Positions 1,417-15,960 of a stretch of 24,640 nt of DNA are shown here, piece by piece. The stretch is from positions 1 through 24,640 of the forward strand of contig JAAFKJ010000148.1 in the NCBI GenBank assembly GCA_021399395.1, read 5' to 3'. How positions within the stretch are numbered: position 1 is the stretch's first letter; each line of letters opens with the position of its first letter. Both the position numbers and the translations under genes were made by a program. The notes under the pieces are model-generated. The model saw only the letters and a list, made by a program, of their open reading frames with translations. It searched no databases and was not told where the DNA came from. The DNA is from Candidatus Heimdallarchaeota archaeon. Its GTDB lineage: Archaea; Asgardarchaeota; Heimdallarchaeia; Heimdallarchaeales; Heimdallarchaeaceae.

Positions 1417-1484
1417 TTTACTTACAGTTAATCAACAGAACAATTAATAATAAGAAATAAAATCAGTTAGTGAGGCAAAAGAAC

Positions 1485-1676: not shown

Positions 1677-1708
1677 TAAGCTCAATAACCTCTAAACAAA
1701 AAATAGAA

Positions 1709-2206: not shown

Positions 2207-2239
2207 TACATTTTTAAATTTTAATTTAATTTTATCTAT

Positions 2240-3358
2240 TTAGAGAAACTCTTCCAAAGTTGGTTTCTCTTTAGATAATTTGATAGGTCTTGCAAATAGT
2301 TTGAGTTTTTGTCTCACAACTGACGCAAACTCTGAATCAAATCCATATAATGTATACACTTTCTTTGGATTTATTGCTTTGACATGATTCAAGAGCTCAT
2401 TGCAATTGGCGTGCATTGAAAAAGGAAACGCTTGTTCAAAACTAGAAAAAGCAAAACGGGAAGCTTGTCCTGTTACAATACTCCTTGCTATTTTGCGAGA
2501 TTTCAGAAATTCAGGGGGTTTTTTTAAAGCTCTTGGTAATAAAATCACACTGTTTTCAGCTTTAAGTTCTGTATCATTTAAAATATCAAAACTATTCCAA
2601 TTTAGCTTTATTCCTTCTTGTTTGTAGATTTTATTTATTTGACTTGTTCGACCATCGCAGTAAATGTCGATGGAAAGCATCTCATTTAGGAACGCAATTA
2701 ACTCTTGAGCTCCTCCCAGATGACCTATGTTGATTACTGGTATTTTTTTGCTCTGAAGGCTATCAGTAATCCATTTTAGAATAGAGATATTTATTCTTTC
2801 TCTGGAATCGAACATCAAATCAGCTTTTCCATAAGTTGATTCAATAATTAAGATATCAATTTCATCATCTGGAATTTCTGCTTTTGGCACTGTTAGCATC
2901 TTATCTGTACTAATATCTCCAGTGTAACAAAATGTCAGATCATCGAAATAGAGAATAACTTGTGCAGCTCCAAGCAGATGTCCTGCAGGAATGAATTTTA
3001 CTTCGATATCATTTATGTTCATTTTTTTATTGAAATCTACAAAATGTGTATTTTTCGGTTTTCTTGCAGTTAGACTTTCATACAATTTACTTGCAAGTTC
3101 AGTCGAATAAACCTTGATACCTTCATTTGGAAAAGCTATTGAATGATCGGTATGCGAATGAGTAATGATCGCAACATCGCAGTTTGAAGCAGCTTTAGTT
3201 GTTGTAGGGTCAGCTATTAAAGTGAGATTTTCTGGTTTTGATAGAAATTTAATACCACTTTCATATTTGAACAGAGTTGGCATAAGCTGAACCCCCAGTC
3301 TTCCAATAGTGGTTGAGATTCTATTGACTATAGTCTTAAGTCTTTTCAATATTTTCAA
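2240..3358 (-). CDS. Metallo-beta-lactamase / beta-CASP family nuclease
   Basis: THSHTDH, PAGHLLG, YTGD, ESTYG (motif A) and SMHA (motif B). Start codon uncertain (TTG). Confidence 0.85.
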   Translation of the reverse strand: MKILKRLKTIVNRISTTIGRLGVQLMPTLFKYESGIKFLSKPENLTLIADPTTTKAASNCDVAIITHSHTDHSIAFPNEGIKVYSTELASKLYESLTARKPKNTHFVDFNKKMNINDIEVKFIPAGHLLGAAQVILYFDDLTFCYTGDISTDKMLTVPKAEIPDDEIDILIIESTYGKADLMFDSRERINISILKWITDSLQSKKIPVINIGHLGGAQELIAFLNEMLSIDIYCDGRTSQINKIYKQEGIKLNWNSFDILNDTELKAENSVILLPRALKKPPEFLKSRKIARSIVTGQASRFAFSSFEQAFPFSMHANCNELLNHVKAINPKKVYTLYGFDSEFASVVRQKLKLFARPIKLSKEKPTLEEFL

Positions 3359-3367
3359 GACTTATTC

Positions 3368-5743
3368 CTAATCTTTTTCTAACTTTTTGGCAACAGCATC
3401 AGTTATTGTTCTAAATTTGAGCCCAAGCATCATTGAACCTTCAAAGATTAGTTCTTTAGCCATGTAAGCAGAAGCGGCATTAACTGTTCCTGCAAAGATA
3501 CCGCTCGCAATAGATGGATCCATACAGATAGTAACATCCGGAGTTTCAACTTTGTTTTCTCCTGTAGAAAACAAACCATTTTCAATTTTTATGAAATAAT
3601 GCTTGTCATCTCCAACCGAGATTTGAAATTGTAATCTGGTCTTTTTGTTCTTCTTCTGTATCTTGTCATCCTCATTACAAATCTGGGCTAACAAATCCAA
3701 ATAGTTAGGTATGTCTTCATTAGTAAATGTACGTCTCTTAATCTTTATTTTAATTAAAGATTTTAAATCCCCATCTTTTATATCAAGTTCATCAGCATAG
3801 AGCATATCCGCTTCTTGTGTTTCAACGATAAGGCCTAATTCATAACCCTCTTGAACTGAATTAAGTATTTTTCTCGGATAGACTTCTTTACAATCTCCAA
3901 TCTTGAACACTCTTTTAACATGGTTTTTAACAGTTTTTTCGATTTCTAATGAAGGTTGAACTGAAGTTAAAGCTAGTTCATCAAAATCAATTTCTATTGT
4001 TTTGTTATTCTGAACCGCAATTAGTTTGTTTTCTTTAAACTCTGAAACGGTTGTTTCAAGCATTATTTCGATTTGTTCGTCTTCTTCAATTGTAGGTATA
4101 ATCTCTTTAGCAACCAAGGAATACACATCAGTTGCAAGTCTCTTCTTCTCTGTTACAATAGTAACATCCTTGTTAGCACAAGAAAGAAATTCGGCTAATT
4201 CTAGACCAATCATATCTCCCCCTAGAACAACTATTTTCTGTCCTTTTGGAATAGTTCCACCAAGAATCTCCGAATAATGTTTAAAATTCGCATTATTAAT
4301 TCCCTCTATGTCCGGTAATTTGGGTGAAATACCAGTGGCAAGTATGACTGTGTCTGGGTCATACTGTTTCAATAACCCCTCAAAGAACTGTGTATTAAGC
4401 TTAATTTCTATCTGAAGCTTCTCTATAATGAATTTATAATAATCAATTAAATTCTGAACTTCCTTCTTCATAGGAGCTACTTTTGCGTAATTTAAAGATC
4501 CTCCTATGGAAGATTCTTTTTCTATTACTACAACATCGTGCCCCCTTAGCTTAGCTGTTCGAGCAAACTCTAAACCAGCTGGACCCGCTCCTATTACAAG
4601 TAGTTTTTGAGGATTTTCAGATGTTCCTATCGCTTCATCTGAAGCAATTAGATTAGGATTAATTGAGCAAAGAACTTGTTGTTCTGTCATTATTTGATTT
4701 AGGCAAGCGTTACAACCTATACATGTTCGAATAGATTCAATTTGTTTTGATTCAATTTTATTAGGAAACTCAGGATCTGCAATTACTGCGCGACCTACAG
4801 AAACTAGATCAGCTTTGTTACTTTGAAGAATATCTTCTGCTACATCAGGGGTGTTTATTCTTCCAACCACTGCTATGGGTGTTCTTTCTAATGCTTCTTT
4901 TACTAGATTTGCGTTCTGAACAAAACAACCTCTAGGATAGTTCATATAAGGAACAACAGGGAATCGGGGGCTATCGAAGACTCCACCTGTGATGTTAATC
5001 AGATCTACTCCTTCTTTTTCTAAAATCTTGGAAATTTCAATAACATCTTCTACTTCCAACCCTTCGGATATATAGTCGCTACCGTTGAGTCTAAATCCTA
5101 TGATGAAATCGTCTCCACATTTCTTTCTTACTTCTCTGATAATTTCAACAGCTGCTCTAGTTCTATTCTCAAAATTCTGTCCTCCATATTCATCGTCTCG
5201 TTTGTTAGTTCTTAAAGATAAGAATTGATTGAGCAAATAGCCATGTCCTGCGTGGATTTCTACACCATCAAAACCTGCTTTCTTTGTTCTTAGACAAGCC
5301 TCTCCATATCCCTTGATAATCTTAGAAATTTGTTTTGTGGTTAATGGTACTGGCATCTCTCCAGACATTTCAAAGGATATCGCTGATGGGGCAACTGATT
5401 GAAGGCCGATCATATATGATGAAGCTTGGGCACCAGCATGGTAGATCTGAATAAGAGCATGAGCACCGTGTTTCTTTATCGCATTTGCTAGTTCTTTGAA
5501 TTTAGATATGCGTTTATTGCTATCAATACTGAGCATGGTAGCGGTGCCAGCACCTCTTTGATCGAAGTATGCACCTTCAACAATAATTAAACCAACACCT
5601 CCCTTCGCTCTTAACTCATAATAATCTATGAGTTTGTCAGGCATATTTCCTTCTTCATCACCAAAATTGGTATCCATTCCAGGCATGACAAACCTGTTTT
5701 TTAGTGTTATTTGGTTTAGCTTAAATGGCTCGAACAATTTCAT
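3368..5743 (-). CDS. NADH:flavin oxidoreductase (2,4-dienoyl-CoA reductase/BaiCD-like) fused to a C-terminal SCP2 lipid-binding domain
   Basis: Old-yellow-enzyme barrel (HAGHGYLL, NKRDDEYGG), 4Fe-4S motif CIGCNAC-x11-C and FAD Rossmann GAGPAG. The last ~110 aa have an SCP2-like pattern (PDVTICMD...IFAGTVNAASAYMAKELIFEGSMMLGLKF). Confidence 0.88.
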   Translation of the reverse strand: MKLFEPFKLNQITLKNRFVMPGMDTNFGDEEGNMPDKLIDYYELRAKGGVGLIIVEGAYFDQRGAGTATMLSIDSNKRISKFKELANAIKKHGAHALIQIYHAGAQASSYMIGLQSVAPSAISFEMSGEMPVPLTTKQISKIIKGYGEACLRTKKAGFDGVEIHAGHGYLLNQFLSLRTNKRDDEYGGQNFENRTRAAVEIIREVRKKCGDDFIIGFRLNGSDYISEGLEVEDVIEISKILEKEGVDLINITGGVFDSPRFPVVPYMNYPRGCFVQNANLVKEALERTPIAVVGRINTPDVAEDILQSNKADLVSVGRAVIADPEFPNKIESKQIESIRTCIGCNACLNQIMTEQQVLCSINPNLIASDEAIGTSENPQKLLVIGAGPAGLEFARTAKLRGHDVVVIEKESSIGGSLNYAKVAPMKKEVQNLIDYYKFIIEKLQIEIKLNTQFFEGLLKQYDPDTVILATGISPKLPDIEGINNANFKHYSEILGGTIPKGQKIVVLGGDMIGLELAEFLSCANKDVTIVTEKKRLATDVYSLVAKEIIPTIEEDEQIEIMLETTVSEFKENKLIAVQNNKTIEIDFDELALTSVQPSLEIEKTVKNHVKRVFKIGDCKEVYPRKILNSVQEGYELGLIVETQEADMLYADELDIKDGDLKSLIKIKIKRRTFTNEDIPNYLDLLAQICNEDDKIQKKNKKTRLQFQISVGDDKHYFIKIENGLFSTGENKVETPDVTICMDPSIASGIFAGTVNAASAYMAKELIFEGSMMLGLKFRTITDAVAKKLEKD

Positions 5744-5853
5744 CTGATTTATCTCCTAATACATCAAATATAGAAATGAGTAGAATAAAAGTATTTGTTG
5801 CTATCTATTGAATAAGATTAAAGTATTTGTTTAATCTAGACAGCAAGATAGTG

Positions 5854-6927
5854 ATGGTTCAAGAAATTCCTCTTTTTAGAGCATACCCAAAACTAGTATC
5901 TGTTCCTTGGGTTTCAGTTGTCAACTCTCCTACACCTGTCCATAAAATGGAAGAATTAACCAGAATTTTAGACAATGGAGAGATTTGGGTAAAACGCGAT
6001 GATTTAACTCATGAAACATATGGTGGGAATAAACTACGAAAATATGAGTTTGTTTTTGCTGATGTTCTAAAAAAAGAAAAGAAGAAGATCTTAACACAAG
6101 GCAGTATTGGAACCAATCATGGATTGGCAACAGCAGTCCATGCAAAGAGATTTGGTTTGAAAACCCATTTATTTTTACTTGAACAAGAACCTTCACCAAC
6201 TGTTCTTGAAAATCTGCTGTGTCATCATTATTTTGGTGCAAAGTTATCTTTATTGAAAAACAAACTTCACAGAAAACTAGCAGTAAAAACAAAGTTACTT
6301 CTTGATAGAAAAGCATACTCGGTTGTTATTGGGGCTAGTTCTCCACTCGGAACACTAGGTTTTGTTAATGCAGCTTTTGAGCTTAAAGAACAAATAGACA
6401 AAAAACTGATACCAGAACCAGATAAAATCTTCATAACTGTTGGTTCTTTTGCTACTTGTGCCGGTTTAGTACTTGGTTTGGAACTAGCACAACTAAAGTC
6501 TCAGGTTATTGGGATTGGAGTAACAGATCCTTCTTGGAGTTCAAAAGAAGCTACTCTAGATTTAGCTACAAAGGCTTTAGAACTTATGAGAAGTAAAGAT
6601 TCGTCTATTCCTGATGTTTCAAAGAAGTTGTCAAAAAGGTTAGTAGTTGATCATTCTTATTTCGGTGGCAAATATGGTGTCTCTACAGAAGAAGCTCTAG
6701 AAGCAATTGAGCTGGCAAAGAAAGATGAACTTAAGCTTGAATATGTTTACACGGGAAAAACACTAGGCGGATTAATAGACTATAGTAGAAAATCAAAAAT
6801 TTCAAAAAATGAAGTGATTCTTTACTGGAATACAAAAAGCTCAGCAGATTTAACTCCGTATGTTAAGGAAATGAAATATCAGGATTTACCAAAAAAGTTC
6901 CACAAATTCTTTGAAGAAGTGCAATAA
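5854..6927 (+). CDS. PLP-dependent D-cysteine desulfhydrase / ACC deaminase family protein
   Basis: WVKRDD...YGGNKLRK (PLP lysine), TNH and VYTGK. The Thr in VYTGK, rather than the Glu of true ACC deaminases, favours the D-Cys desulfhydrase type. ATG at 5854 preferred over TTG at 5827. Confidence 0.88.
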   Translation: MVQEIPLFRAYPKLVSVPWVSVVNSPTPVHKMEELTRILDNGEIWVKRDDLTHETYGGNKLRKYEFVFADVLKKEKKKILTQGSIGTNHGLATAVHAKRFGLKTHLFLLEQEPSPTVLENLLCHHYFGAKLSLLKNKLHRKLAVKTKLLLDRKAYSVVIGASSPLGTLGFVNAAFELKEQIDKKLIPEPDKIFITVGSFATCAGLVLGLELAQLKSQVIGIGVTDPSWSSKEATLDLATKALELMRSKDSSIPDVSKKLSKRLVVDHSYFGGKYGVSTEEALEAIELAKKDELKLEYVYTGKTLGGLIDYSRKSKISKNEVILYWNTKSSADLTPYVKEMKYQDLPKKFHKFFEEVQ

Positions 6928-6953
6928 TGTCGTCAAGCTTGAAATTAAATTAG

Positions 6954-7020
6954 TGTTGAGAATCAGCTTACCTCGAACAATCATAAATCAGACAGGGGTA
7001 ACCAAATCATTTTCTCAACA
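6954..7020 (-). ncRNA. Box C/D 2'-O-methylation guide sRNA (double guide, large-subunit rRNA peptidyl-transferase centre)
   Basis: Minus strand reads TGTTGAGAA-A-[ATGATTT]-GGTTACCCCTGT-[CTGA]-TTT-[ATGATTG]-TTCGAGGTAAG-[CTGA]-TTCTCAACA. It has a perfect 9-bp terminal stem, boxes in C/D'/C'/D order, and 12- and 11-nt guides complementary to conserved 23S PTC sequences. Confidence 0.85.
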
Positions 7021-7073
7021 AATATCAATTTAACAAAAATAAAATAGTGTTTTGGTTTGTTACTTATGTAATA

Positions 7074-7685
7074 TTATTCTGTTTCTTTAACATATTCAGA
7101 CTTTAACATACCAAAATAGAATAACCCAAACCGTTTACCTGCATCAATATAGCCTTCTCTGAAGTGTCCTTCTTTAACGAAATTCAATCTCTCTGCTAGT
7201 TTATAGCTATCTTCATTATTATCTCTTGTAATCAATATTATTTTATATGCTCTTAATTCATCAAAAACGAAATCCATACTTCGTCTTACTGCTTCTGTTG
7301 CTAATCCTTTCTTTGTGTAACCTTGATCAAGGTAATAACCGATTTCAAATGATGGAACTTCCCATTTATTCGGTTCAATCCAGATATTACCAATAAAATC
7401 CTTAGTTTCCTTTGACCAAATTCCCATAACAAATCTAGTTCGATTAATGAAATCTGCAGCTAATGAACGAATGCGGATTTCTGCATCTTCTAAGGATTGA
7501 ACATCCATTGCTTCATCAACTGCTTCCCTTAGAAACTCTCGATTATCATTTCTATCTAGTAAATTCAAAAGCCCCTCCCCATCTCCTTTGTCAAACTTTC
7601 TGATAACAAGTCTATCTGTCTCAATTTGAGTAGGTAAATCCAATAACTGTTTCAACACTTCCTTTTTTTCTTTACTAGATCTCAA
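7074..7685 (-). CDS. GNAT family N-acetyltransferase, RimJ/RimL type
   Basis: IETDRLVIR start, EIGYYL..YTKKGLATEA (motif A), N..S..LAERLNF.KEG. Confidence 0.9.
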   Translation of the reverse strand: MRSSKEKKEVLKQLLDLPTQIETDRLVIRKFDKGDGEGLLNLLDRNDNREFLREAVDEAMDVQSLEDAEIRIRSLAADFINRTRFVMGIWSKETKDFIGNIWIEPNKWEVPSFEIGYYLDQGYTKKGLATEAVRRSMDFVFDELRAYKIILITRDNNEDSYKLAERLNFVKEGHFREGYIDAGKRFGLFYFGMLKSEYVKETE

Positions 7686-7867
7686 ATTCTATCATCTCAA
7701 AGGTTTTTTAGTATCTCTTGAATATTTAGATAGTTATCATCTTTCAATCTTTATCCTTGCTCTTCTTGCGCAAATAGTGTGGGTATCTTATTGTAAGGTC
7801 TACTTTACTTTCTAAAAACCCATTATTCAATAAGGGAGACAATACAAGAAGGGAGGGTATTTCACCT

Positions 7868-10027
7868 CTAAGAAGAATTCTTGCTTTTGTTAAAGACTAG
7901 GCTCTTGACTGTTACAGGGAAAGCTTGACCGGAATAGAGCGGTGCACCGATGTCTATCCAATCTCCTTCTTCTAGTTCTAATTCATCCATACAAATGAGG
8001 TTGTCCTTTAAAGCTGTATCTCTACGAAGAGCAATTCCTATAGATCCTCCCATATCTTGGTCAAAAATCAGAATCACCAGTTTGTTGTCAACAACTGAAT
8101 TTGGCAAAGCTTCTGCGATTGCTTTAGCGAGATCTGACAGATAGAAATTGTTTCTATATATTGGATCTTTGAAGTATAAAGCAACTAAATCCTCTCCTTC
8201 ATGCATATCAAATCTTCTGAAAGCAATATCTATCTCTTTCTTAAGATTCTCTTGACTGTATTTTTCTTTTTGAATATTTACATTTATTACAGGAATGTTC
8301 TCAAGAGGGAATAGGATGCTCTTATCAAAATAACAAGTAGATCCAGATACTGAAAGTGAAAATGATCCTGCACCAATAACTGTAGCTCTGATTTTATTTT
8401 CAGGCTCTAATATAGGTAATTTGTATTTTTTCATTAAAACTTGGATTTCTTCTGCAAGGTATACACCAATATCATCATATTTGTTATCCTGACCATAAAT
8501 GAATTCAGCAACTCCTCCAGAGAATGAATAACAATCAATTGGGATTGAAAAACCTAAATCGTCAGTCATCATCAGTTTCTTAGCAATTTTACTTTTTGCA
8601 GGTCCTTTCATTACTTCAACCAAAGCTTTTGCATATTCTTGAGCTACTAATCTAACATCTTTTTCGGGAATAATTTCCCCAATTTTATGGTCTAGACCTA
8701 GTTCTTTAAAGAGGAACTCAGTGGGTTCGTCTATCCTCCAGATTTTGAAATCTTTATCAATTCCTAGTAATCTTCCGCCAACATTTATGCAAGATGTACT
8801 AGTAACTTGCCCCTTTGACGCAATTGCAAGATTACTGGTTCCTCCCCCAACATCTATATTCATTATTGTATTCTCTTCTTCTTGTGTCTGATCAACAATA
8901 CCGCTTCCCATAGCTCCAAGCAGAGATTCAAAATTTGGTCCTGCTGCGGCACTGACAAATTTTCCAGTTGTAGAAGACAATCTTTTTACTATTTCCTCTG
9001 CATTTTGTTTCTTAGCTGTTTCTCCAGTAACTATAACAGCTCCTGTATCTACCATCTCTGTAGTAATTCCAGCTTTCTTGTATTCTCCTTCAAAGAATTC
9101 AACAACAGCATCAATATCGATAGTAAAGCGGTCTATTATGGGAGTGTCAATAATATTGCCCTCATAGATTAATTTACGGTTAATAAGATGAAAACGGTTA
9201 GACATATTCATGAAACTCTGTTCTCTTCTAAGAGTTAAACCAGAAAATACAAGATGCGATGTAGAAGAGCCAACATCAATTCCAACACTTAGAACATTAA
9301 GATATTCACCAATATCATCATTTGCTTGAGAAAGAATTTCAGGGAAGATTTCAGCTAACTTGTTAGTACTTAGCTGTATTTTTTCAATTTCTGCTCTAGA
9401 ATAACCCATTAACTCTCTTGCAGATTTAACTTTGAAAGCTGGTTTATCACTTTTCAGCTCAAATGAATCCTCTACAACATTTACGATTCTTATCTCTAAC
9501 TCTTTATCATGGTGTTTGGGTAATTCCACTCTCTCATCTGAATTTAACAACTGTTCCTTCAAATCTTCAGGAATGTCTAAGAATTCTTCGCAGACAGTAC
9601 AGAAGAATTTGATTGTGGATGTTTTATCGCTACCTGGAAGAATTGGTCCATTTTCAGTAGGACGTCGGATCTTATTATCAACCTGTCTTTGAATACCAGC
9701 TAGACTGATATCAAACATTTCTGCCATTCTATCGCATATACTTTCATAGATTTGACCTTTTTCAACAACTGATTCAAGTGCCAATCTAAATTCTGAAATA
9801 AGACGATAATATTGTAAGAGTTCTGTTTTATCTTCTTGTTCATTTTGTTTAACAAGTGTATCGTACTTTTCTTCGAATGTCTTTCTCAATTCTTCTGCAT
9901 TCTCTTTGTTGTATCGGTCTAAGAACGCATGAACAATTCCTACTATTGACCATTTTTGAGTTGCTATATCGACTTTAATGTTAGATCCGTCAACTGATTT
10001 CTTTGACATATGTTGAAAAAATACCAT
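7868..10027 (-). CDS. eutA: EutA-family (ethanolamine ammonia-lyase reactivase-like, ASKHA ATPase) protein with a ~240-aa N-terminal extension
   Basis: LSVGIDVGSSTSHLVFS, TGAVIVTGETAKKQNA, FVSAAAGPNFES..GAMGSG, NIDVGGGTSN, IRATVIGAG and WIDIG...PVTVKSLVF are EutA hallmarks. The start may be the second Met. Confidence 0.85.
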   Translation of the reverse strand: MVFFQHMSKKSVDGSNIKVDIATQKWSIVGIVHAFLDRYNKENAEELRKTFEEKYDTLVKQNEQEDKTELLQYYRLISEFRLALESVVEKGQIYESICDRMAEMFDISLAGIQRQVDNKIRRPTENGPILPGSDKTSTIKFFCTVCEEFLDIPEDLKEQLLNSDERVELPKHHDKELEIRIVNVVEDSFELKSDKPAFKVKSARELMGYSRAEIEKIQLSTNKLAEIFPEILSQANDDIGEYLNVLSVGIDVGSSTSHLVFSGLTLRREQSFMNMSNRFHLINRKLIYEGNIIDTPIIDRFTIDIDAVVEFFEGEYKKAGITTEMVDTGAVIVTGETAKKQNAEEIVKRLSSTTGKFVSAAAGPNFESLLGAMGSGIVDQTQEEENTIMNIDVGGGTSNLAIASKGQVTSTSCINVGGRLLGIDKDFKIWRIDEPTEFLFKELGLDHKIGEIIPEKDVRLVAQEYAKALVEVMKGPAKSKIAKKLMMTDDLGFSIPIDCYSFSGGVAEFIYGQDNKYDDIGVYLAEEIQVLMKKYKLPILEPENKIRATVIGAGSFSLSVSGSTCYFDKSILFPLENIPVINVNIQKEKYSQENLKKEIDIAFRRFDMHEGEDLVALYFKDPIYRNNFYLSDLAKAIAEALPNSVVDNKLVILIFDQDMGGSIGIALRRDTALKDNLICMDELELEEGDWIDIGAPLYSGQAFPVTVKSLVFNKSKNSS

Positions 10028-10423: not shown

Positions 10424-11290
10424 TTAGAATTCAGATACTAACGCAACAATATTTGGACCTGTATGTGCAGATATGGTGACTCCCGTGCATACTGTTCTTA
10501 TTTTTATGTCATTGAAATGTTGTTTTAATTTCTTCTCCATTCTTCCAGCAAATTCCAAATTGTTACCATGAATAATAATAACTTGTTTTGGAACTCTAGT
10601 AAAATTCTCTGAGGTTAATTCTAGGATTTTATGGATACCTTCATTTATTTCTGTTACAGATGCAGCAACTTCGTTCTTGCCTTCTTTATTAACAACTGTA
10701 ATTGGTTTCTTTCTAAGTAGAGTTCCAAGAATGTATTTTGTCACCGAGATTCTACCTCCTTTTCGTAAATATTTCAATGAAGGGAGAAGTATGTGAGTTT
10801 TGATATTTTTGGTGTGTTCTCTTAATTTCTTTGCTATCTCATCGCCATCCAAACCTTGTTTCTGTAGTTTCAATCCTTCTTCAATCAACAACACTTCAGA
10901 ATATGATGCATTCAATGCGTCAACAAGATGAACTTTAATTTTCTCATTTTTCCTTTTGAGCATATTCACTCCTAGCCTTGCACTGTTAAGTGTACCACTT
11001 AAACCTGAACTTAGAGTTACTACTATTATTTCTTTTACTCCTTCTTTTGCTAGTTCTTCATATGCAATAAAGAAGTCATTAGGAGTTGGCTGAGCAGTTT
11101 TTGCAGTGAAATCGTCATTTGTTTCGTATTTGCGATAATAGGATTCAAGATCAAAACTTCTATCCTCCTTATGCACGACATCATCTGCATCACTAAAAGT
11201 TACAGTCAAAGGAATGACTTTTACACCTATTTTTTCAGCATAATTAAGATCAATATCTGAACCACTGTCGGTAACAAAACCTATCTTCAT
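10424..11290 (-). CDS. DegV family fatty-acid-binding protein (FakB-like)
   Basis: IGFVTDSGSDI, KTAQP, LSSGLSGT, VDALNAS, YLRKGGRI, ISAHTGP. Confidence 0.93.
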   Translation of the reverse strand: MKIGFVTDSGSDIDLNYAEKIGVKVIPLTVTFSDADDVVHKEDRSFDLESYYRKYETNDDFTAKTAQPTPNDFFIAYEELAKEGVKEIIVVTLSSGLSGTLNSARLGVNMLKRKNEKIKVHLVDALNASYSEVLLIEEGLKLQKQGLDGDEIAKKLREHTKNIKTHILLPSLKYLRKGGRISVTKYILGTLLRKKPITVVNKEGKNEVAASVTEINEGIHKILELTSENFTRVPKQVIIIHGNNLEFAGRMEKKLKQHFNDIKIRTVCTGVTISAHTGPNIVALVSEF

Positions 11291-11398
11291 GATTTATTTC
11301 TGAATTTAACATTTATAAAACGTTCTCAGAAACAAGAGAAAACTTAGTTTATTTCGATTAAATTTATTAAACCATGTTCTCTTCTTTAGTAGTATATC

Positions 11399-12271
11399 AT
11401 GGATTATTCAGTTTCTCACTATAATAACATCAGCGAGATATCAAAAGAGGTTGATAAGTATCTCAATCAACATTCAATTATCAACTTCGAAGCGATAGGG
11501 ATTTTGGAGAAGTTAAGAGAAAATTCCAAGGAGTTTGAAGGTGTCCTAGAATGTATAGTGGTCTCAGAAGCTGAAAAAATTCAAGTTGTTAGTTGTAGAA
11601 TCAGACCATACAACCTTCTAATTTCTAATTCACAGGATATACACGCAATCTCAGCCTTAGTTCAATATTTCTCACAATCCAGAATCACTATACCAGGAAT
11701 TTATGGGCCAATGGCAGAAGTGGAACACTTTACTAATCTCTGGAAAGAGATTTCAGATGAAGTATTTCAAACATCTGATGAGTTTTTACAATATTCATTA
11801 AGTAAAAAGACATTATCAACACAATTGATAGGAGATATCTCAATAGCAAAAATTGAATATACAGAGCTTCTAAAGGGGTGGACAGAAGCTAGTATCAGAG
11901 AGATTATACCAAGCTCTACAGTTGAATTTGTCAAGTCATGCACTCAATCATTTCTTAGATTACTAGAGAAGAATAAAGTATTCATTTTAAAAGTAGATAA
12001 TTCACTTGTATCAATGGCAGCGATTTCAGGTCAAACAAAAACTATGCAAGCAATTAACGATGTGTATACCCCGCCTGAATATCGTGGAAAAGGGTATGCA
12101 ACAGAATTGTGTATATTCTTGTGTGAGTATATTTTGAATGATTGTGATAATATTCCTATACTTTGGGTAAAAGCAACAAATCTTACAGCTATTCATATTT
12201 ATGAAAAAATAGGATTTGAAAAAGTAGCAGAAATGGAGTTAAGTCTGAAAAAATTGGTGGCCGGAACATGA
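11399..12271 (+). CDS. GNAT family acetyltransferase (two-domain, FR47-like C-terminus)
   Basis: INDVYTPPEYRGKGYA and N..AIHIYEKIGF. Confidence 0.88.
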   Translation: MDYSVSHYNNISEISKEVDKYLNQHSIINFEAIGILEKLRENSKEFEGVLECIVVSEAEKIQVVSCRIRPYNLLISNSQDIHAISALVQYFSQSRITIPGIYGPMAEVEHFTNLWKEISDEVFQTSDEFLQYSLSKKTLSTQLIGDISIAKIEYTELLKGWTEASIREIIPSSTVEFVKSCTQSFLRLLEKNKVFILKVDNSLVSMAAISGQTKTMQAINDVYTPPEYRGKGYATELCIFLCEYILNDCDNIPILWVKATNLTAIHIYEKIGFEKVAEMELSLKKLVAGT

Positions 12272-12331
12272 TTTGAACACGTGATCACCTGGACCCAAAC
12301 CAGGGGCCATACCAAGCTAGACCATCCGGCC
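12255..12331 (-). tRNA. tRNA-Pro(TGG), CCA encoded
   Basis: Reverse complement GGCCGGA...CCTGG-TT-TGG-GT-CCAGG...ACGTG-TTCAAAT-CATGT-TCCGGCC-A-CCA. Confidence 0.95.
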
Positions 12332-12360
12332 AGTATTTCTACACTATCTCCCTTTCCCTC

Positions 12361-12378
12361 ATATAATTAAGCCTTTCG
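12361..12378 (-). promoter_or_regulatory. BRE-TATA promoter of tRNA-Pro
   Basis: CGAAAGGCTTAATTATAT about 30 nt upstream of the tRNA. The same CGAAAG BRE precedes tRNA-Glu and the fdh gene. Confidence 0.6.
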
Positions 12379-12386
12379 TTCTTATC

Positions 12387-13916
12387 TTAATCGAACATAG
12401 CTCTGTTTTGTAGCATTAGAAGTATGTCTTCTATCATCCAGTTATTTACTTGGAGCCATAATTCACCATGAGAAAAATCATCCCAAACTTGTTGGGGTGT
12501 TACTGGTTTGCTCATTACACTTGGAGGATCATCGGTTCTATCTCTATCATAGGCTCCAAAATTATGAGCGATTTCGTGTTGAACTAAATTTTCTGCCCAG
12601 TCTGCTACAATTCCTATCCAACTATACTCTCCCAATTCTCCAGATTCAGCAAAATGAAACGCAGCATTTCTTTCATAATAAGCAAAACCAAAATGCTCAG
12701 AGGTTTGGTTGGAGAAACTTGTTAATAAGTCAAAACCATGATTATCTGGAGAACGGCCGAATTCGACATCCCAACTACCATCTAGACCTAATAAATCCCC
12801 AGCTGTTTGGAGAGCGATAGTATCAACAACACTCATACTAACGTCCTCAGGATGCCAAGGAAGTTCAACAACTGGAATGAGTTTAATCCCAAGTTCCTTC
12901 TCGAAAAATGCAGACGTTTCATGCATAGTGGTAAAAAGATTGTCTCTAGCAACTTCTTTTCCAGAAATCTCCCAATTGTCATTTAACATGAAAACAAACA
13001 CTCTGTGTTCATATTGAAGAATAGAAAGATTATCAAGATAGACGTGAGTAGAGTTATCTGCATAGACGAAAACAACTTGTAAAGTAACATTTGACATTCC
13101 AATTCCCTCACCAAAATGGATAAGTTGATTCTGTAGAGAAGAGATGTCTAAGTTTAAAGACATATTCGATTTAATTCCGTTTGTAAATAAATTAACCTCA
13201 ATTGAGCTATTTGTACTCTCTATTTCTTGGTCAAAGGATAAGTAATGGCTTTTTGTTAAGTTGACTGTCTGAGAGATACTTATCCAAGTAGAGTTTCCAG
13301 GATCAATAGTCTCAATATTAGTAAAGCGAATACAATTTCCTTCAAAAGATGGATGGGTAACAATCCCAATCTCTGTTTTGTCATTTTGTCTATCACCTTG
13401 CCAGTTATTTAGACTGTCACTGAAATCTCCGTTGATTATCTGTTCTACCTCTAATTGATTGGTTATATTCAGAGAAAAATCGACATTTTCGCTAATTTCT
13501 GGCACTCGATTTTCAAATGTAATCTTAAATGAGTAAACATCATATTCACCAACATTCAAAGCAAATAATCCTGTTGAAGCATTAATTAGGGGCCCCATCT
13601 CTACTACAACAATATGTGAACCTCTTTCAATCTCTTGATTTAATTCATAAGTTACAGAACCATTAAGAGAGTACGTATCAGATGAAATGCCAATTTCTAA
13701 CGTTTCTATTGTTGTTCTTGGTGCTCCCTCTAGTTCAATTTCAAAAGTGATTGGAACTGGATCTCCTTTTATCTTTTCTAAAGGCATTGAAATAAAAATC
13801 AATTCTGTATTTCCAGAGAAATAATTATTTATTATCATATCAGTAAGAAAATATCCTCCTATACCTACACTCAACAATCCAACAAAAATAAGGCTAAGAA
13901 GGACAGTTTTTCTCAT
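12387..13916 (-). CDS. Membrane-anchored/secreted metzincin (M12/reprolysin-like) zinc metallopeptidase with beta-sandwich domains
   Basis: N-terminal hydrophobic helix, CBM-like start IINGDFSDSLNNW, and C-terminal HEIAHNFGAYD with Met-turn SVMS. Confidence 0.75.
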   Translation of the reverse strand: MRKTVLLSLIFVGLLSVGIGGYFLTDMIINNYFSGNTELIFISMPLEKIKGDPVPITFEIELEGAPRTTIETLEIGISSDTYSLNGSVTYELNQEIERGSHIVVVEMGPLINASTGLFALNVGEYDVYSFKITFENRVPEISENVDFSLNITNQLEVEQIINGDFSDSLNNWQGDRQNDKTEIGIVTHPSFEGNCIRFTNIETIDPGNSTWISISQTVNLTKSHYLSFDQEIESTNSSIEVNLFTNGIKSNMSLNLDISSLQNQLIHFGEGIGMSNVTLQVVFVYADNSTHVYLDNLSILQYEHRVFVFMLNDNWEISGKEVARDNLFTTMHETSAFFEKELGIKLIPVVELPWHPEDVSMSVVDTIALQTAGDLLGLDGSWDVEFGRSPDNHGFDLLTSFSNQTSEHFGFAYYERNAAFHFAESGELGEYSWIGIVADWAENLVQHEIAHNFGAYDRDRTDDPPSVMSKPVTPQQVWDDFSHGELWLQVNNWMIEDILLMLQNRAMFD

Positions 13917-13979
13917 CTTGTTCTCAGTAAATATTATTATTCAAGCCATTATATAATCTTTGGATAAGTAAAAAATAGA

Positions 13980-14690
13980 TTAGGTTGATTCCTGCGGAAT
14001 CTCAACCTTTTCTCCCATTTTTCTTTCTGTACCTTTGAGTAAGCTTTTGATATTTACTCTATGTCTCCAGAAGATAAAAGCAACCATAACACAACTAACA
14101 ATTAAAGCCCATAGACTTCCGTTGAAGAACCAGGACTCATTACCTGCAAAAATCCAATAAATAACAGGAGATATTGCTGCCATAATAAGATTTGATAGAG
14201 ACATAATTTTAGTGAATTTGAGTAATGGAAACCAGAGGAGCATAACAAATACCCAAGCAATTGGATTAATTCCTAAAATAGCACCTGATCCAACTGCTGC
14301 AGATTTACCACCCTTAAATTTCACCCAAACTGGTAAAGCGTGACCCACAACTGTCATAAAGGCAACAAGAGTTAGAAGGAACCCTTCATCTAGATAATAT
14401 GGGAAGCCAGCTTCTGAATCGGTTCCAAAACCTGAATAAGTGCCAAACCAAACATAAATTCGTGCAAGAAAAACAGCTGTTGCTCCTTTTACCATGTCAA
14501 GGCCCATAGTCAGATATCCAGCTTTGTTACTTACTGTTCGCATAACATTTGTTGCACCCATATTACCCGAACCATAATCTCTGATGTCGATACCTTTGCT
14601 AACTTTACCAACAATATATCCGACAGGTATCGAACCAAATAGGTAACCTAAAACCACTAGGAGAATTTCATATAAAATCTCAATTGCCAT
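13980..14690 (-). CDS. plsY: Acyl-phosphate:glycerol-3-phosphate acyltransferase PlsY
   Basis: All PlsY motifs are present: GYLFGSIP, DIRDYGSGNMGATNVMR, DMVKG, GHALPVW.KFKGGK, RHRVNI. Multi-TM protein. Confidence 0.93.
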   Translation of the reverse strand: MAIEILYEILLVVLGYLFGSIPVGYIVGKVSKGIDIRDYGSGNMGATNVMRTVSNKAGYLTMGLDMVKGATAVFLARIYVWFGTYSGFGTDSEAGFPYYLDEGFLLTLVAFMTVVGHALPVWVKFKGGKSAAVGSGAILGINPIAWVFVMLLWFPLLKFTKIMSLSNLIMAAISPVIYWIFAGNESWFFNGSLWALIVSCVMVAFIFWRHRVNIKSLLKGTERKMGEKVEIPQEST

Positions 14691-14779
14691 GAACGAGTAG
14701 AACGATGACTTTTATTTAAAATTTGTCAGATACAACTAAAGAAAGAAAAACAAATGAAAATAAAGAAGAGAAGGAGATT

Positions 14780-15013
14780 TTATTTTTCAACGCAGATCAT
14801 GGTCATAGTACTACGTACATTCTCTAATGCTCGCAGATTCTCTGTAACAATTCTCTTTAACTCATCCATTGTATCTGCTTCAATTTTTGCAATTAAGTCA
14901 TAAACACCATAAACTACGTGTGCTTCACCAACATTAGGTAGAGACATAAGTTGATCGAGCACGCTTTTTTCTTCACCAATCTCACTATTGATTAAAATGA
15001 ATGCTGTTGCCAT
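14780..15013 (-). CDS. Stand-alone Lrp/AsnC ligand-binding (RAM) domain protein
   Basis: 77 aa, AFILIN...EAHVVYGVYDLIAKIE...IVTENLR.LENVRST.T, with no HTH. Confidence 0.9.
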   Translation of the reverse strand: MATAFILINSEIGEEKSVLDQLMSLPNVGEAHVVYGVYDLIAKIEADTMDELKRIVTENLRALENVRSTMTMICVEK

Positions 15014-15183
15014 TAGGAATTCACCAACGGAATATATGTATTGGCGTTTAATAAACCTTTTTCAGAATTGATTGAATTGAAGTGATTGATTTTCTAATAA
15101 ATCTGTATTAAATATTGACGCAAAAGACAGTTTTTAGGACAAAACGACGTTATTTTAAATGCATATCAGCATTTTATCTTAGA

Positions 15184-15960
15184 ATGCAAGAAGTAATCTT
15201 TCCAGAACGACTTAAAGAATTGGCACAACCTTATTTCTATAAAGCTGAAAATAACCATACGAAAACATTAGTAATTCTTGTTCATGGTTTTGGTGCTTCA
15301 GCTACAGAAACAAGACCTCTAGGTGAGTTTCTCTGTAAGAATGGTTATGATATCTTTGGTGTCCTTCTATCAGGACATGGCACCGTTTCTAAAGACTTGG
15401 ACAATATATCTTGGAAGGATTGGTATCAAGATATTGAAGATGCTTATTTACAGAATTCAGAAAAGTATGAGCATGTATTTATTGGTGGTCTTTCCTTGGG
15501 AGGAGCGTTAGCACTGTATACTGCAACCAAATTAGATTTCGAAGGTATTTTTACAATTAATGCTTTATACAGATTCAAGAGAATCTGGACTTTATTTTCT
15601 TGGATAGCTCATTTCTTCAAACTACATAGACCTAGGAATCTAGAAAGAGTTAAGTGGTATGTGGAAAATGATCTGTTTGCTTATCAAGATGATTCAACAT
15701 ATGCATCTTATCAAATTCTAAAATTCTTAAGATTTTTACATGTAGAAATTAGAAAAATTGAGATTCCAGCATTGATAATCCAATCACAAGAAGATAAAAC
15801 GATAAATCCTCAAAGCGCAGAATGGATATTTGCAGACTTGAAGACAAAAAAAGAACTCATGCAACTTGAAAAGGGGGATCATATTCTTACTGTTGATGAA
15901 AACAAGGATATAGCATTTGAAAAAATCTTAGGATTCTTGAAAAACAAAATAAGCAAATAA
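15184..15960 (+). CDS. Alpha/beta hydrolase (carboxylesterase / monoacylglycerol lipase-like)
   Basis: HGFG oxyanion motif, GLSLGG nucleophile elbow, QSQED acid and GDH His. ATG at 15184 preferred over TTG at 15115. Confidence 0.88.
   Translation: MQEVIFPERLKELAQPYFYKAENNHTKTLVILVHGFGASATETRPLGEFLCKNGYDIFGVLLSGHGTVSKDLDNISWKDWYQDIEDAYLQNSEKYEHVFIGGLSLGGALALYTATKLDFEGIFTINALYRFKRIWTLFSWIAHFFKLHRPRNLERVKWYVENDLFAYQDDSTYASYQILKFLRFLHVEIRKIEIPALIIQSQEDKTINPQSAEWIFADLKTKKELMQLEKGDHILTVDENKDIAFEKILGFLKNKISK

Follow-up and report, generated by a model that had tools for sequence, protein, structure and literature searches.

A candidate fatty-acid activation module of FakA-type kinase, DegV and PlsY in Heimdallarchaeia

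The closest described counterpart of the genes considered here is the Fak system of the Firmicutes, in which FakA and a FakB (DegV-family) protein lead to the acyltransferase PlsY. According to the available text of PMC9136124, the N-terminal (FakA_N) and middle (FakA_L) domains of S. aureus FakA restore kinase activity whether fused or separate, the C-terminal domain does no more than bring the KM for FakB down from 0.99 to 0.09 uM, and binding of FakB1 by FakA_N and FakA_L is not detectable. A zinc-ligand cysteine of the middle domain (C240 in S. aureus, C244 in S. suis) is described as important for activity.

Homologs of PlsY and PlsC have been reported from Lokiarchaeota, Thorarchaeota, Heimdallarchaeota LC_2 and Poseidoniales (PMC6431249, PMC6737245, PMC9385802), and two Ca. 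Heimdallarchaeum genomes without PlsC have been published (PMC8813620); the remark in an initial annotation of the present locus, that PlsY was already known from uncultured archaea, is thus borne out by Asgard MAGs in print, a Heimdallarchaeote among them. Coleman et al. thought it unlikely that archaeal PlsY and PlsC take part in membrane synthesis (PMC6431249). These papers remark on the missing PlsX without settling where acyl-phosphate comes from or what the enzymes do, and their available text says nothing of DegV, of FakA or of a fatty-acid kinase in archaea. In our literature searches an archaeal Fak system was nowhere described: Asgard PlsY and the lack of PlsC are already published, and for Fak-type supply of acyl-phosphate in archaea we found no prior description.

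Here we analyse a stretch of 24,640 nt (the whole of which is called the window) from Candidatus Heimdallarchaeota archaeon, assembly GCA_021399395.1, contig JAAFKJ010000148.1, a member of the Asgard archaea (class Heimdallarchaeia, order Heimdallarchaeales, family Heimdallarchaeaceae, f1 in our numbering of families). From the identities of the genes, their domain architectures, their operon linkage in a sister family (f5) and their co-occurrence, we think it reasonably probable, though far from assured, that the window genes belong to a Heimdallarchaeia-wide fatty-acid activation module, a minimal fatty-acid kinase feeding PlsY.

Genes of the window

The initial annotation had placed a degV, an intact plsY and a GxSxG esterase in the window, and all three lie where it put them (Table 1); its spacings from plsY, 2.7 kb for degV on the same strand and 0.5 kb for the esterase, agree with the 2.69 kb and 425 bp found here, the esterase and plsY being divergent.

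Table 1. Features of the window around plsY and degV
Feature	Position	Strand	Length (aa)	Basis
degV: DegV/FakB-family fatty-acid-binding protein (putative)	10424..11290	-	288	PF02645, TIGR00762, 4x9x
GNAT acetyltransferase, between orf509 and degV	11399..12271	+	290	Pfam Acetyltransf_1, 1.9e-12
orf509: N-terminal hydrophobic segment, HEIAHNFGAYD motif	12387..13916	-		translation; weak Reprolysin_5/3
plsY (paralog A, canonical): acyl-phosphate:glycerol-phosphate acyltransferase homolog	13980..14690	-	236	PF02660, TIGR00023, 5xj5
small ORF: stand-alone Lrp/AsnC ligand-binding (RAM) domain	14780..15013	-	77	NCBIfam
alpha/beta-hydrolase esterase, bacterial monoacylglycerol-lipase / Est30 carboxylesterase type	15115..15960	+	281	Hydrolase_4, PDB relatives

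The window PlsY matches Pfam G3P_acyltransf (PF02660) with E 3e-48, exceeds the NCBIfam PlsY equivalog cut-off (TIGR00023; 159.1 bits against 137.2) and aligns over its full length with Aquifex PlsY 5xj5 (E 3.8e-25), including the blocks GSGNMGATN, LDMVKG, GHALPV, FKGGKS and RHRVNI; every PlsY motif is intact. Its closest loci share 72-88% identity and belong to 10 records, which bear the titles Heimdallarchaeota, Promethearchaeati or uncultured archaeon; the next best are bacterial, at 29-39%. Paralog A forms a clade with orthologs from the whole family, among which identity falls to 43-56%, and its sister is the PlsY of families f3 and f4. There are three PlsY matches in the genome, and Heimdallarchaeaceae carry two extra, divergent paralogs besides paralog A; the RHRxN block of canonical PlsY is missing from both of these and from the PlsY of the f5 operon described below.

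The window DegV matches PF02645 (E 3.7e-62) and, with 218 bits, passes the TIGR00762 cut-off of 99.7, while lying far under the NCBIfam cut-off for the FakB1 equivalog (129 bits against 350). Its best solved relative is the S. aureus DegV/FakB-type protein 4x9x (E 6.7e-33), and its KTAQP, LSSGLSGT, GGRIS and SAHTGP stretches align with FakB. It is one of 12 DegV matches in its genome, the range among Heimdallarchaeaceae being 9-15 per genome; bacteria have few FakBs.

For the esterase, whose ORF opens with TTG at 15115, the ATG at 15184 is the likelier start. The protein matches Hydrolase_4 (E 1.3e-19) and has a G-L-S-L-G nucleophile elbow and a GDH close to the C-terminus; among its best solved relatives are the bacterial lipase 7e04 (E 1.7e-32), thermostable monoacylglycerol lipases (MGL 7e0n, 4lhe, 3rli) and Est30 (1tqh). 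Eight other ORFs of the genome resemble window-type hydrolases, three of them at most 2 kb from a degV.

As to the remaining genes, the GNAT acetyltransferase has, besides the window copy, a counterpart here in just 2 of 10 loci of the genus (L037, L104) and is not considered part of the system. Orf509 (Reprolysin_5/3, weakly, at 5e-4 and 8e-4; no NCBIfam match; all Atlas leads below 0.9) is a zincin-like protein that is membrane-anchored and probably extracellular. The RAM-domain ORF, which shares the strand of plsY and lies 90 bp upstream of it, matches the NCBIfam models for the AsnC C-terminal part (9.7e-9) and a LysM regulator (4.9e-7) when scanned as 14780-15016, and is a possible small-molecule sensor.

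A FakA-type kinase and its linkage to degV and plsY

The initial annotation had staked its reading on the presence of an acyl-phosphate source, and a candidate is encoded in the genome by two FakA-type Dak2 genes and a middle-domain (M) gene. The Dak2 proteins stand alone (218-228 aa) and match best the N domain of S. aureus FakA (8vip/7rm7, E 5.9e-46) and the full FakA 7w7h; the NCBIfam YloV/FakA model gives them 250 and 211 bits, the DhaL model 28 and 25. No Dak1 partner was found in the genome; one relative (G030) has a true DhaL-DhaK-DhaM cluster, separately. The motifs DGDTG, GAKGNSG, EGT and VVDAGA vary little or not at all across 32 Heimdall sequences of the kinase. The M gene, at C165:3-173, is interrupted by a contig end, and its 57-aa fragment is 82% identical to the M domain of a congener.

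Families f2-f5 have a fused protein of Dak2 and FakA-like_M (308-349 aa), whereas in the window's genus 19 of 24 congeners encode M in an ORF of its own, the frames being 89-140 aa long and for the most part 100-120, and the N (Dak2) gene is duplicated. The zinc-ligand cysteine of M is kept in f2-f4, and is Asp in the window's genus and Glu in the f5 operon proteins. A FakA C domain was found neither in this genome nor anywhere in the order, where the FakA-like_C profile reaches at most 35.5 bits, on frames of 290-310 aa, as against 209-259 bits for bacterial FakA; those weak frames that were checked (C84 of this genome, two each in G001 and G032) fall within DegV genes. With a fused N+M query, the best 13 of 7605 library matches include 11 N+M-only proteins of 312-350 aa, and full-length proteins (~530-600 aa) begin to appear only lower down.

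Complex prediction for one of the genome's Dak2 proteins (C118) with the window DegV gave a score of 0.38 (best of three controls, 0.00). This passes a mark that 58 of 80 solved complexes attain, as do 2 mismatched pairs out of 110, although passing scores of 0.60 or less belong to only 7 of those 80 and to both of the mismatches. The three runs share at least 92% of contacts, with a partner pLDDT of at least 89. A similar complex, 7w7h, has already been solved, so the pass may merely reproduce a known structure, and the prediction lends weak support to a Dak2-DegV complex.

The initial annotation cautioned that these genes are not one operon. Within this genome the caution holds, the module genes being spread over 13 contigs with no fakA adjoining degV or plsY, but elsewhere it is lifted. 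In all three Dak2-positive genomes of f5, fakA (N+M), degV and plsY are consecutive and overlapping, as in L111 (fakA 6403-7452, degV 7449-8345, plsY 8338-9003; L113 and L112 are alike), and an esterase-like gene adjoins this operon, on its downstream side in L111 and on its upstream side in L113; in G032, of f3, the gene immediately before fakA is a Hydrolase_4 gene. The window's genus conserves the arrangement of a divergent hydrolase gene (abH) followed by plsY-orf509-degV: the last three genes are co-directional in 9 of 10 distinct loci, orf509 lies directly downstream of plsY in 10 of 10 (as it does in 2 of 3 further genera of this family), and the divergent abH/plsY pair is retained in 8 of 10 (again 2 of 3).

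PlsY, DegV and FakA-type Dak2 also occur together in relatives, as the initial annotation would have it, throughout the order and, within the phylum, only in this class. PlsY is present in 41 of 41 genomes of the order and FakA-type Dak2 in 40 of 41; of 151 Asgard genomes drawn evenly, 25 have DegV, every one of them in Heimdallarchaeia (0/123 outside the class), with PlsY in 25 and FakA-type Dak2 in 23 of these 25, counts that overstate linkage because related genomes share genes by descent. One genome, G153 (f6, 90% complete), gave no Dak2 match despite 15 DegV and 6 PlsY matches.

The proposed module and its alternatives

In the proposed module, monoacylglycerol-lipase-type esterases would free fatty acids from scavenged esters, a FakB-like DegV, to judge from its conserved ligand-contact residues, would take up the fatty acid, and a FakA without the FakB-docking C domain would use ATP to convert DegV-bound fatty acid to acyl-phosphate. 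We propose a kinase step of this kind because the corresponding S. aureus domains are described as active, fused or separate (PMC9136124); in the window's genus it would be carried out by a split FakA, consisting of the stand-alone N proteins and the small middle-domain protein. PlsY would then move the acyl group onto glycerol phosphate to give acyl-glycerol-phosphate. The acceptor could be G3P, by way of the genome's glycerol kinase (above the equivalog cut-off in 5 of 5 Heimdallarchaeaceae genomes), or G1P, by way of its G1P dehydrogenase (above the NCBIfam cut-off), since bacterial PlsY is described as accepting both (PMC13400652).

The salvage route of the initial annotation, from lipid through fatty acid and acyl-phosphate to lysophosphatidate, is thus supported by the kinase, the co-occurrence and the f5 operon. 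Its bacterial-type ester-lipid toolkit is incomplete, in that PlsX was not found in this genome or in any of 12 genomes, nor PlsC in this genome or in any of 8 Heimdallarchaeaceae genomes, two of them closed; diacyl phospholipid would therefore not be makeable by the known route in this family. CarS-like genes are present in 12 of 12 genomes (1-3 matches per Heimdallarchaeaceae genome, 2-3 in 6 of 8) and, with the G1P dehydrogenase, indicate that ordinary archaeal lipids are probably still made.

Alternatively, the genes may not form a lipid-building pathway: DegV and Dak2 would bind, sense, detoxify or transport fatty acids or other lipids, PlsY homologs would have another role, and co-occurrence would reflect joint inheritance after a shared bacterial acquisition. 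The scatter of the genes in this genome, DegV numbers far above those of bacterial FakBs, a window DegV under the FakB equivalog cut-off, the failure to find PlsC and PlsX, and co-occurrence inflated by descent would all fit. We nevertheless consider this unlikely, for the overlapping f5 operon is hard to explain without a common pathway, and the genes have been kept intact over the deep divergence seen in paralog A, with PlsY motifs intact and the Mg/ATP motifs of the kinase invariant.

It is distinctly improbable, in our judgement, that the genes serve a full bacterial-type membrane synthesis, in which diacyl or mixed acyl/isoprenoid phospholipids form a substantial share of the membrane and the PlsY paralogs of f1 replace PlsC. 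An inverse pattern points that way, f1 having three PlsY and no PlsC while f3 and f5 have 1-2 PlsY and 3-5 PlsC-type matches, but it comes from few, related genomes; at the C-terminal RHRxN block the extra paralogs diverge from paralog A, as would suit another acceptor, and PlsY is not known to acylate position 2. Glycerol kinase, the number of CarS-like genes and the lack of detectable GGGPS, in this genome as in the family, are also in favour, whereas the G1P dehydrogenase and those same CarS-like genes argue for continued ether lipids, and the lipids so far reported from cultured Asgard archaea, including one Lokiarchaeon with archaeal lipids only, are archaeal, as cited in PMC13400652.

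Contamination or mis-binning of bacterial contigs, conceivable for a MAG of 201 contigs (81.8% complete, 2.56% contaminated), is refuted by the ribosomal L11 and Spt5 NGN-KOW genes (Pfam) on the plsY/degV contig, which bear out the archaeal context claimed at the outset, by the same genes in two single-contig Heimdallarchaeaceae genomes, by Asgard-typical neighbours (Ras-family GTPases, a CCDC47-like protein) and by the distance of the nearest bacterial PlsY.

Comparison with known systems

With PlsY, a stripped-down kinase and a dozen DegV in an Asgard archaeon, the question whether ester lipids are made by our closest archaeal relatives becomes directly testable. DhaK and DegV have the EDD fold in common. 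The DhaK/DhaL (Dak1 plus Dak2) system resembles the proposed module in that a stand-alone Dak2 nucleotide-binding subunit works in trans upon a ligand bound to another protein, and differs in that no Dak1 was found in this genome, whose Dak2 proteins have scores 8-9 times higher with FakA/YloV models than with DhaL. The S. aureus truncation FakA_NL has the domain content of the Heimdall N+M proteins, fused or separate, but is engineered, with an 11-fold higher KM for FakB1 (PMC9136124), where the Heimdall forms are natural.

From the Firmicutes Fak system the module is set apart by the absence of the FakB-docking C domain throughout the order, by the separate N and M and duplicated N of the window's genus, by Asp or Glu in place of the zinc-ligand cysteine in two families, by the many DegV proteins of Heimdallarchaeaceae, by the lack of PlsX for acyl transfer to ACP and, in Heimdallarchaeaceae, of PlsC, and by an archaeal host, which has G1P dehydrogenase and CarS-like genes. 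What the two share is the same three families in the same logical order, with a Dak2 nearest to the FakA N domain, a FakA-like_M domain and a DegV with FakB-like ligand-contact stretches.

Genes of the window and their products

The genome that holds the window, as its contig C56, comprises 2.82 Mb in 201 contigs and is 81.8% complete and 2.56% contaminated. Pfam matches confirm the degV, plsY and esterase genes where the initial annotation had placed them (see the table), and the archaeal setting that it had described is borne out by genes for L11 and Spt5 (NGN-KOW) on the same contig, so that contamination, or a mis-binned bacterial contig, is rejected. In a search of named genomes the ten closest PlsY loci, at 72–88% identity, came from records titled Heimdallarchaeota, Promethearchaeati or uncultured archaeon, and the other 34, at 29–39% identity, were bacterial.

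Coordinates of the features described, by contig or locus (G000, the window's genome)
Location	Feature	Coordinates	Strand	Match or remark
Window	degV	10424-11290	-	Pfam DegV 3.7e-62
Window	plsY	13980-14690	-	Pfam G3P_acyltransf 3e-48
Window	alpha/beta hydrolase	15115-15960	+	Hydrolase_4 1.3e-19; GLSLG
Window	EutA-like gene	7868-10027	-	ethanolamine ammonia-lyase reactivase family, 1.2e-136
Window	OYE + pyridine-nucleotide-disulphide oxidoreductase + SCP2 fusion	3368-5743	-	
L111	fakA(N+M)	6403-7452		operon
L111	degV	7449-8345		operon
L111	plsY	8338-9003		operon
L113	fakA(N+M)	6370-7401		operon
L113	degV	7398-8285		operon
L113	plsY	8239-8928		operon
L101	Cys-rich ORF and stand-alone M gene	4243-4629, 4634-4939	-	
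G000:C174	glycerol kinase	76787-78262	-	
G000:C174	tandem degV pair	89255-91082	-	
G000:C119	divergent DegV-like paralog	4434-5227	+	
G001:C15	half-matching DegV frame	440793		
G065:C1	half-matching DegV frame	3018358		
G109:C1	half-matching DegV frame	3260915		
G043:C48	half-matching DegV frame	182664		
L089 (G000:C24)	TnpB/Cas12f-like gene	5244-6059	-	OrfB_IS605
G001:C4	CarS-like paralog and three-degV group	95823-99766		
L082	GNAT-SCP2 protein	7975-9156		
L090	SCP2 protein	8448-8867		139 aa
L146 (G117:C106:4500-9985)	three PlsY fusions	405-1628, 1783-3012, 3110-4312	-	
L147	PlsY fusion	995-2203		

The PlsY of the window (A) lies above the NCBIfam TIGR00023 PlsY equivalog cut-off (159.1 against 137.2 bits) and aligns over its full length with the solved Aquifex PlsY (5xj5), with all conserved blocks in place. 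The blocks GSGNxGxxN, DxxKG, GHxxP, FKGGKG and HRxN, which we take to be the active-site blocks of PlsY, are all present, and G40, G45, N48, R51, D65, G116, H117, G127 and G128 do not vary among 14 sequences. There are three PlsY matches in the genome; paralogs B (contig C58) and C (contig C20) fall under the same cut-off, at 106.4 and 112.6 bits, and have no RHRxN block at the C-terminus, which is also missing from the PlsY of an operon in f5, a family of the same class. Judged by its sequence, A is the canonical copy, and acyl transfer from acyl-phosphate to glycerol phosphate is its predicted activity.

A tree of 59 PlsY rows was built by a quick method, with bacterial rows chosen by similarity and therefore a biased sample; near-identical orthologs of the genus were omitted (six loci were kept), as were the genome's own B and C, represented by their orthologs in genomes G065 and G120. 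Copy A belongs to a family-wide clade (support 98) that adjoins the PlsY of f3 and f4, families of the same order (80), and B and C cluster with copies from f6, a further family of the class (95). The deep branches, with support of 48–80, are not resolved, and for this reason, together with the biased bacterial sampling, we claim no donor or direction of transfer.

The window DegV scores well above its family profiles (PF02645, 210.6 against 27 bits; TIGR00762, 218 against 99.7 bits) and short of the FakB1 equivalog cut-off NF038249 (129.1 against 350 bits); it belongs to the DegV family without being the equivalog of FakB1 from staphylococci. Its best solved relatives are staphylococcal and streptococcal FakB proteins (4x9x, 6.7e-33), with whose structures the stretches KTAQP, LSSGLSGT, GGRIS and SAHTGP align. 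The Thr, the Ser-Ser pair, the Arg of GGR and the His are presumably the residues that hold the fatty-acid carboxylate in FakB/DegV proteins. Across 26 Heimdall DegVs G179 never varies and R180 hardly does; the carboxylate-contact His and Ser are missing in several paralogs and in the DegV of the f5 operon. The window's genome has 12 DegV matches, and among 12 better genomes there are 9–15 in the window's family, 2–3 in f3 and one in f5.

Only the N-terminal half of one divergent DegV-like paralog, on contig C119, fits the DegV model (positions 2-160/170); similar frames occur in four other genomes, and in the closed genomes such a paralog is conserved as the first member of the degV cluster. 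A TnpB/Cas12f-like gene ends the short contig C24, which carries a divergent degV pair.

The third gene had been described as a lipase-like hydrolase with a GxSxG motif. This description stands: the translation has the GLSLG nucleophile motif and a C-terminal GDH and matches the Hydrolase_4 profile (70.9 against 27 bits), and its closest relatives are bacterial monoacylglycerol lipases and Est30-type carboxylesterases (7e04, 1.7e-32, full-length alignment). For positions 10424–15960 of the window, the eight sequencing runs listed as matching are all DNA, from sediment or cold-seep metagenomes, with no RNA run among them.

Elsewhere in the window, two genes from degV, lies a gene for a 719-aa EutA-like protein that is extended at its N-terminus by about 240 aa; the position of the gene is kept in the single relative locus where it was observed (L040, the same record as L106). 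SCP2 (sterol/lipid carrier) domains recur near degV and plsY genes: in the OYE–oxidoreductase fusion of the window, which we take to resemble 2,4-dienoyl-CoA reductase, in a GNAT-SCP2 protein two genes from PlsY paralog C (L082) and in a small protein 3 kb from a degV gene (L090).

The FakA-type kinase

Two Dak2 genes are found in the window's genome, on contigs C118 (228 aa) and C161 (218 aa), and the best solved relatives of their products are the N domain of S. aureus FakA (8vip/7rm7, 5.9e-46) and full-length FakA (7w7h). On the NCBIfam YloV/FakA models the two proteins score 250 and 211 bits, and a local match to model positions 1–200 gives 250.5 bits for YloV and 202.1 bits for FakA_VfrB. 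The Mg/ATP motifs DGDTG, GAKGNSG, EGT and VVDAGA vary little or not at all across 32 Heimdall sequences. Both proteins are of the FakA and not the DhaL type; a DhaKL reading is rejected, as no Dak1 was found in the genome and the DhaL scores are just 28 and 25 bits.

The other families of the order, and f5, carry a single protein of 308–349 aa that combines Dak2 with the FakA middle domain, M (PF21645). In 19 of 24 congeners of the window's genus, M is an ORF of its own at a different locus (frames of 89–140 aa, mostly 100–120). The PF21645 profile has no match in the window's genome, where tblastn with a congener's M protein recovers the first 57 residues of the gene (82% identity), behind the same upstream neighbour as the congener's copy and running off the end of contig C165. 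The HxH pair of the domain is kept everywhere; its Cys is kept in f2–f4, all families of the order, and is replaced by Asp in the window's genus and by Glu in f5, residues that can bind zinc. In S. suis FakA the zinc site consists of one Cys and three His, and the Cys is required for activity; its replacement is a caveat for the activity expected of the Heimdall proteins.

In all three congeners examined (L101–L103) the stand-alone M gene is followed by a Cys-rich 128-aa ORF without a Pfam family, at a gap of 4 bp in L101 and of some tens of bp at the other two loci; the M domains of these loci have lost the zinc-ligand Cys.

No real match to the FakB-docking C domain (PF13684) exists in the window's genome, the score of 19.8 bits lying inside a DegV gene. 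Across 41 genomes of the order PF13684 reaches at most 35.5 bits, on frames of 290–310 aa which, where checked, lie inside DegV genes; bacterial FakA proteins score 209–259 bits. The Heimdall Dak2 proteins also fall short of the whole-protein FakA cut-offs of 396 and 975 bits and, because of this and the missing C domain, the kinase is not a canonical FakA as modelled by NF038248 and TIGR03599.

When a fused Heimdall N+M protein was searched against 1.84 billion representatives, the 13 best matches comprised 11 N+M-only proteins (312–350 aa), a 203-aa fragment and one 780-aa protein with a C domain, domain content being checked for eight short and two long proteins among the library matches. 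Proteins of about 530–600 aa begin below the best 13, with a few more short ones lower down.

A complex of the C118 Dak2 with the window DegV, each given as an alignment, was predicted with a score of 0.38, against 0.00 for the best of three controls. Among solved complexes 58 of 80 reach the mark for this score, and among mismatched pairs 2 of 110; passes at 0.60 or under comprise only 7 of the 80 solved complexes and both of the passing mismatches. At least 92% of the contacts coincide between the runs, with a partner pLDDT of at least 89. The model lends weak support to binding between the two proteins, and its pass may reflect memorisation, because the FakA–FakB complex has already been solved (7w7h).

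Gene linkage, distribution and the rest of the lipid pathway

The initial annotation had noted that the genes are not one operon. This holds for the window's genome, where they are scattered and the neighbourhoods of all 12 degV, three plsY and two Dak2 genes bring no two of these families together outside the window, but not for f5, which belongs to another order of the class. There fakA(N+M), degV and plsY stand in direct succession, their stop and start codons overlapping, in the three of seven sampled genomes that have Dak2 (loci L111 and L113, with L112 arranged alike). This operon is the strongest new fact on linkage. A serine-esterase-like gene lies 52 bp downstream of it in L111 and an Abhydrolase_1 gene 140 bp upstream in L113; in G032, a genome of f3, a Hydrolase_4 gene directly precedes fakA.

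Synteny within the genus was followed in ten distinct loci (L040 and L106, apparently the same record, counted once). The pair formed by plsY and orf509, the gene directly downstream, is found in all ten, a co-directional downstream degV in nine and the divergent esterase in eight; one of the two loci without esterase is uninformative because it starts at plsY. Gaps of about 75 bp and 210–250 bp occur in six of the nine plsY–orf509–degV loci, and wider degV gaps where other DNA is interposed, namely a GNAT gene in both L037 and L104 and a stretch of about 2.3 kb in L046. The GNAT gene that stands between orf509 and degV in the window is thus present in just two of the ten loci. In three other genera of the family, esterase–plsY is kept in two, plsY–orf509 in two and an adjacent degV in none. 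Searches of Pfam, NCBIfam and Atlas with orf509 turned up no more than weak leads to zincins or to carbohydrate binding, and a role in the pathway is rejected for want of evidence.

In the window's genome 11 ORFs resemble the hydrolases collected, three being the queries themselves; of the other eight, three have a degV gene no more than 2 kb away (one on contig C24, two on C200), and the 15 degV and plsY loci cover roughly 3% of the genome. The recurrence of alpha/beta-hydrolase-like ORFs beside degV is suggestive only, because the queries came from such neighbourhoods.

Within the order (41 genomes, four families) PlsY is found in all genomes, Dak2 in 40, the miss being a genome 63% complete, and FakA_M in 34. 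A wider, even draw of 151 Asgard genomes, scanned for DegV at E <= 1e-10, gave DegV in 25, all in the class (20/20 in the order, 4/7 in f5 and 1/1 in f6), and in none of the 123 genomes outside it. PlsY is found in 41 of the 151, that is, in all 25 with DegV and in 16 outside the class, and Dak2 in 25, of which 23 are DegV-positive, counts that are not independent events because the genomes are related. Co-occurrence in relatives, a check that the initial annotation had set, is seen. High-scoring frames in the two remaining Dak2 genomes resemble the DhaL of genome G030, which adjoins Dak1 and an EIIA gene. No Dak2 match was obtained in the DegV-positive genomes G164 (f5) and G153 (f6). The latter, 90% complete, has 15 DegV and six PlsY matches, and either its kinase was missed or another kinase is used.

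In f13, an Asgard family outside the class, PlsY forms the N-terminal half of proteins of about 400–410 aa whose C-terminal 200 aa or so have no Pfam match; one genome has three such fusions in tandem (L146). This family has no DegV, and a Dak2 match, DhaL-like, in only 1 of 25 genomes (G158).

As for the remainder of the pathway, the window's genome has a G1P dehydrogenase (447.7 bits, equivalog cut-off 413), a glycerol kinase (692 bits, cut-off 590) and a CarS-like gene; CarS-like genes occur in all 12 better genomes, with one to three per genome in the window's family. PlsX, a PlsC-type acyltransferase, Dak1, the GpsA C-domain (PF07479) and PcrB/GGGPS were not found in the window's genome. 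The companion genes named by the initial annotation are thus divided: the FakA-type Dak2, glycerol kinase and G1P dehydrogenase are there, and PlsX, PlsC and the GpsA C-domain were not found. A candidate acyl-phosphate source, in the form of FakA-type kinase domains, is present.

Because the genome is incomplete, absences were re-tested in 12 better genomes, two of them single-contig. PlsX (PF02504) was found in none of 12, the window's own and both single-contig genomes included; the same profile matched in 9 of 14 reference genomes. PlsC-type proteins (PF01553) were found in none of the eight genomes of the window's family and are present in both f3 and both f5 genomes. The diacyl-lipid pathway is incomplete in the window's family. 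The work of Wu et al. (PMC8813620) independently describes two Ca. Heimdallarchaeum genomes without PlsC.

The GGGPS profile PF01884 has no match in the window's genome, and weak matches in two relatives of the family proved to be OMP-decarboxylase-family proteins. With the GGGPS-like proteins from f3 and f5 as queries, phmmer returned no match among the ORFs of the window's genome; the f3 query found nothing in four genomes of the family and recovered the ortholog in G032; a three-sequence GGGPS HMM, run without any filters, scored no higher than 8.3 bits on the ORFs of the window's genome. By these searches GGGPS appears not to be detectable in the family, the two single-contig genomes included, and we do not claim a loss.

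Divergent PcrB-like proteins (28–54 bits) are carried by f3 and f5, and in the window's family, which has G1P dehydrogenase and CarS-like genes, attachment of the first isoprenoid chain is unaccounted for. In each of the five genomes of the family examined, 9–13 kb separate glycerol kinase from a tandem degV cluster. Downstream of the window genome's own tandem degV pair, and on its strand, come a HAD-like hydrolase gene and a 575-aa ORF without family. In genome G001 three degV genes form a group at a distance of about 400 bp from a CarS-like paralog, an arrangement not kept in the other genomes compared.

Interpretation and comparison with known Fak systems

The most likely mechanism, and one to which we give somewhat better than even credence, is a minimal Fak that supplies PlsY: esterases would feed it, FakA N and M with DegV would produce acyl-phosphate, and PlsY would use this acyl-phosphate. 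The salvage route cautiously proposed in the initial annotation withstands, at the level of the genomes, the checks set there on the acyl-phosphate source and on co-occurrence.

A more far-reaching reading, which we consider improbable, is that the membrane-lipid pathway of Heimdallarchaeaceae has been remodelled and in part 'bacterialised'. The split, C-less FakA and the 9–15 DegVs would activate scavenged fatty acids, and the three PlsY paralogs would esterify G3P (from GlpK) or G1P (from G1P dehydrogenase), replacing the missing PlsC and perhaps compensating for the undetectable GGGPS; the products would be acyl or mixed acyl/isoprenoid, possibly heterochiral, glycerophospholipids. If true, the archaeal class nearest to eukaryotes would contain a living intermediate across the lipid divide. 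The ester lipids of eukaryotes are of bacterial type, yet their host lineage is archaeal, and the course and timing of this membrane change have long been debated.

Reports of PlsY homologs in Asgard MAGs date back to 2017–2019; the homologs were discounted partly for want of a source of acyl-phosphate, the PlsY substrate (no PlsX), and reviews leave their function open (PMC6431249, PMC9385802). These two papers and PMC6737245, PMC9723677 and PMC13400652 report Asgard PlsY and PlsC homologs, no PlsX and a function left open; in the last, bacterial PlsY is also shown to accept G1P. We found no description of a Fak system in archaea in a literature search with subscription journals and supplementary tables outside its reach, and the only co-mentions concern B. 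subtilis FakA/FakB used as reagents.

A candidate acyl-phosphate source is now named, tied to PlsY by an overlapping operon and by co-occurrence (Dak2 in 23 of the 25 DegV-positive genomes), and speculation on ester lipids becomes testable with four proteins in vitro, with G3P versus G1P as the read-out. In this lineage the proposed minimal Fak with PlsY bears on the origin of eukaryotic membranes, and a naturally C-less, split FakA beside an unusually large DegV family is of interest for the recognition of binding proteins by Fak.

According to Subramanian et al. (PMC9136124), S. aureus FakA_N and the middle domain, as one chain or two, form an active fatty-acid kinase, and the C domain just docks FakB, with a KM of 0.09 uM with it and 0.99 uM without. 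The domain content of the Heimdall kinase is thus that already proven sufficient in S. aureus: the N and M proteins have the same domains as the active FakA_NL fragment, and they would be natural versions of this minimal enzyme.
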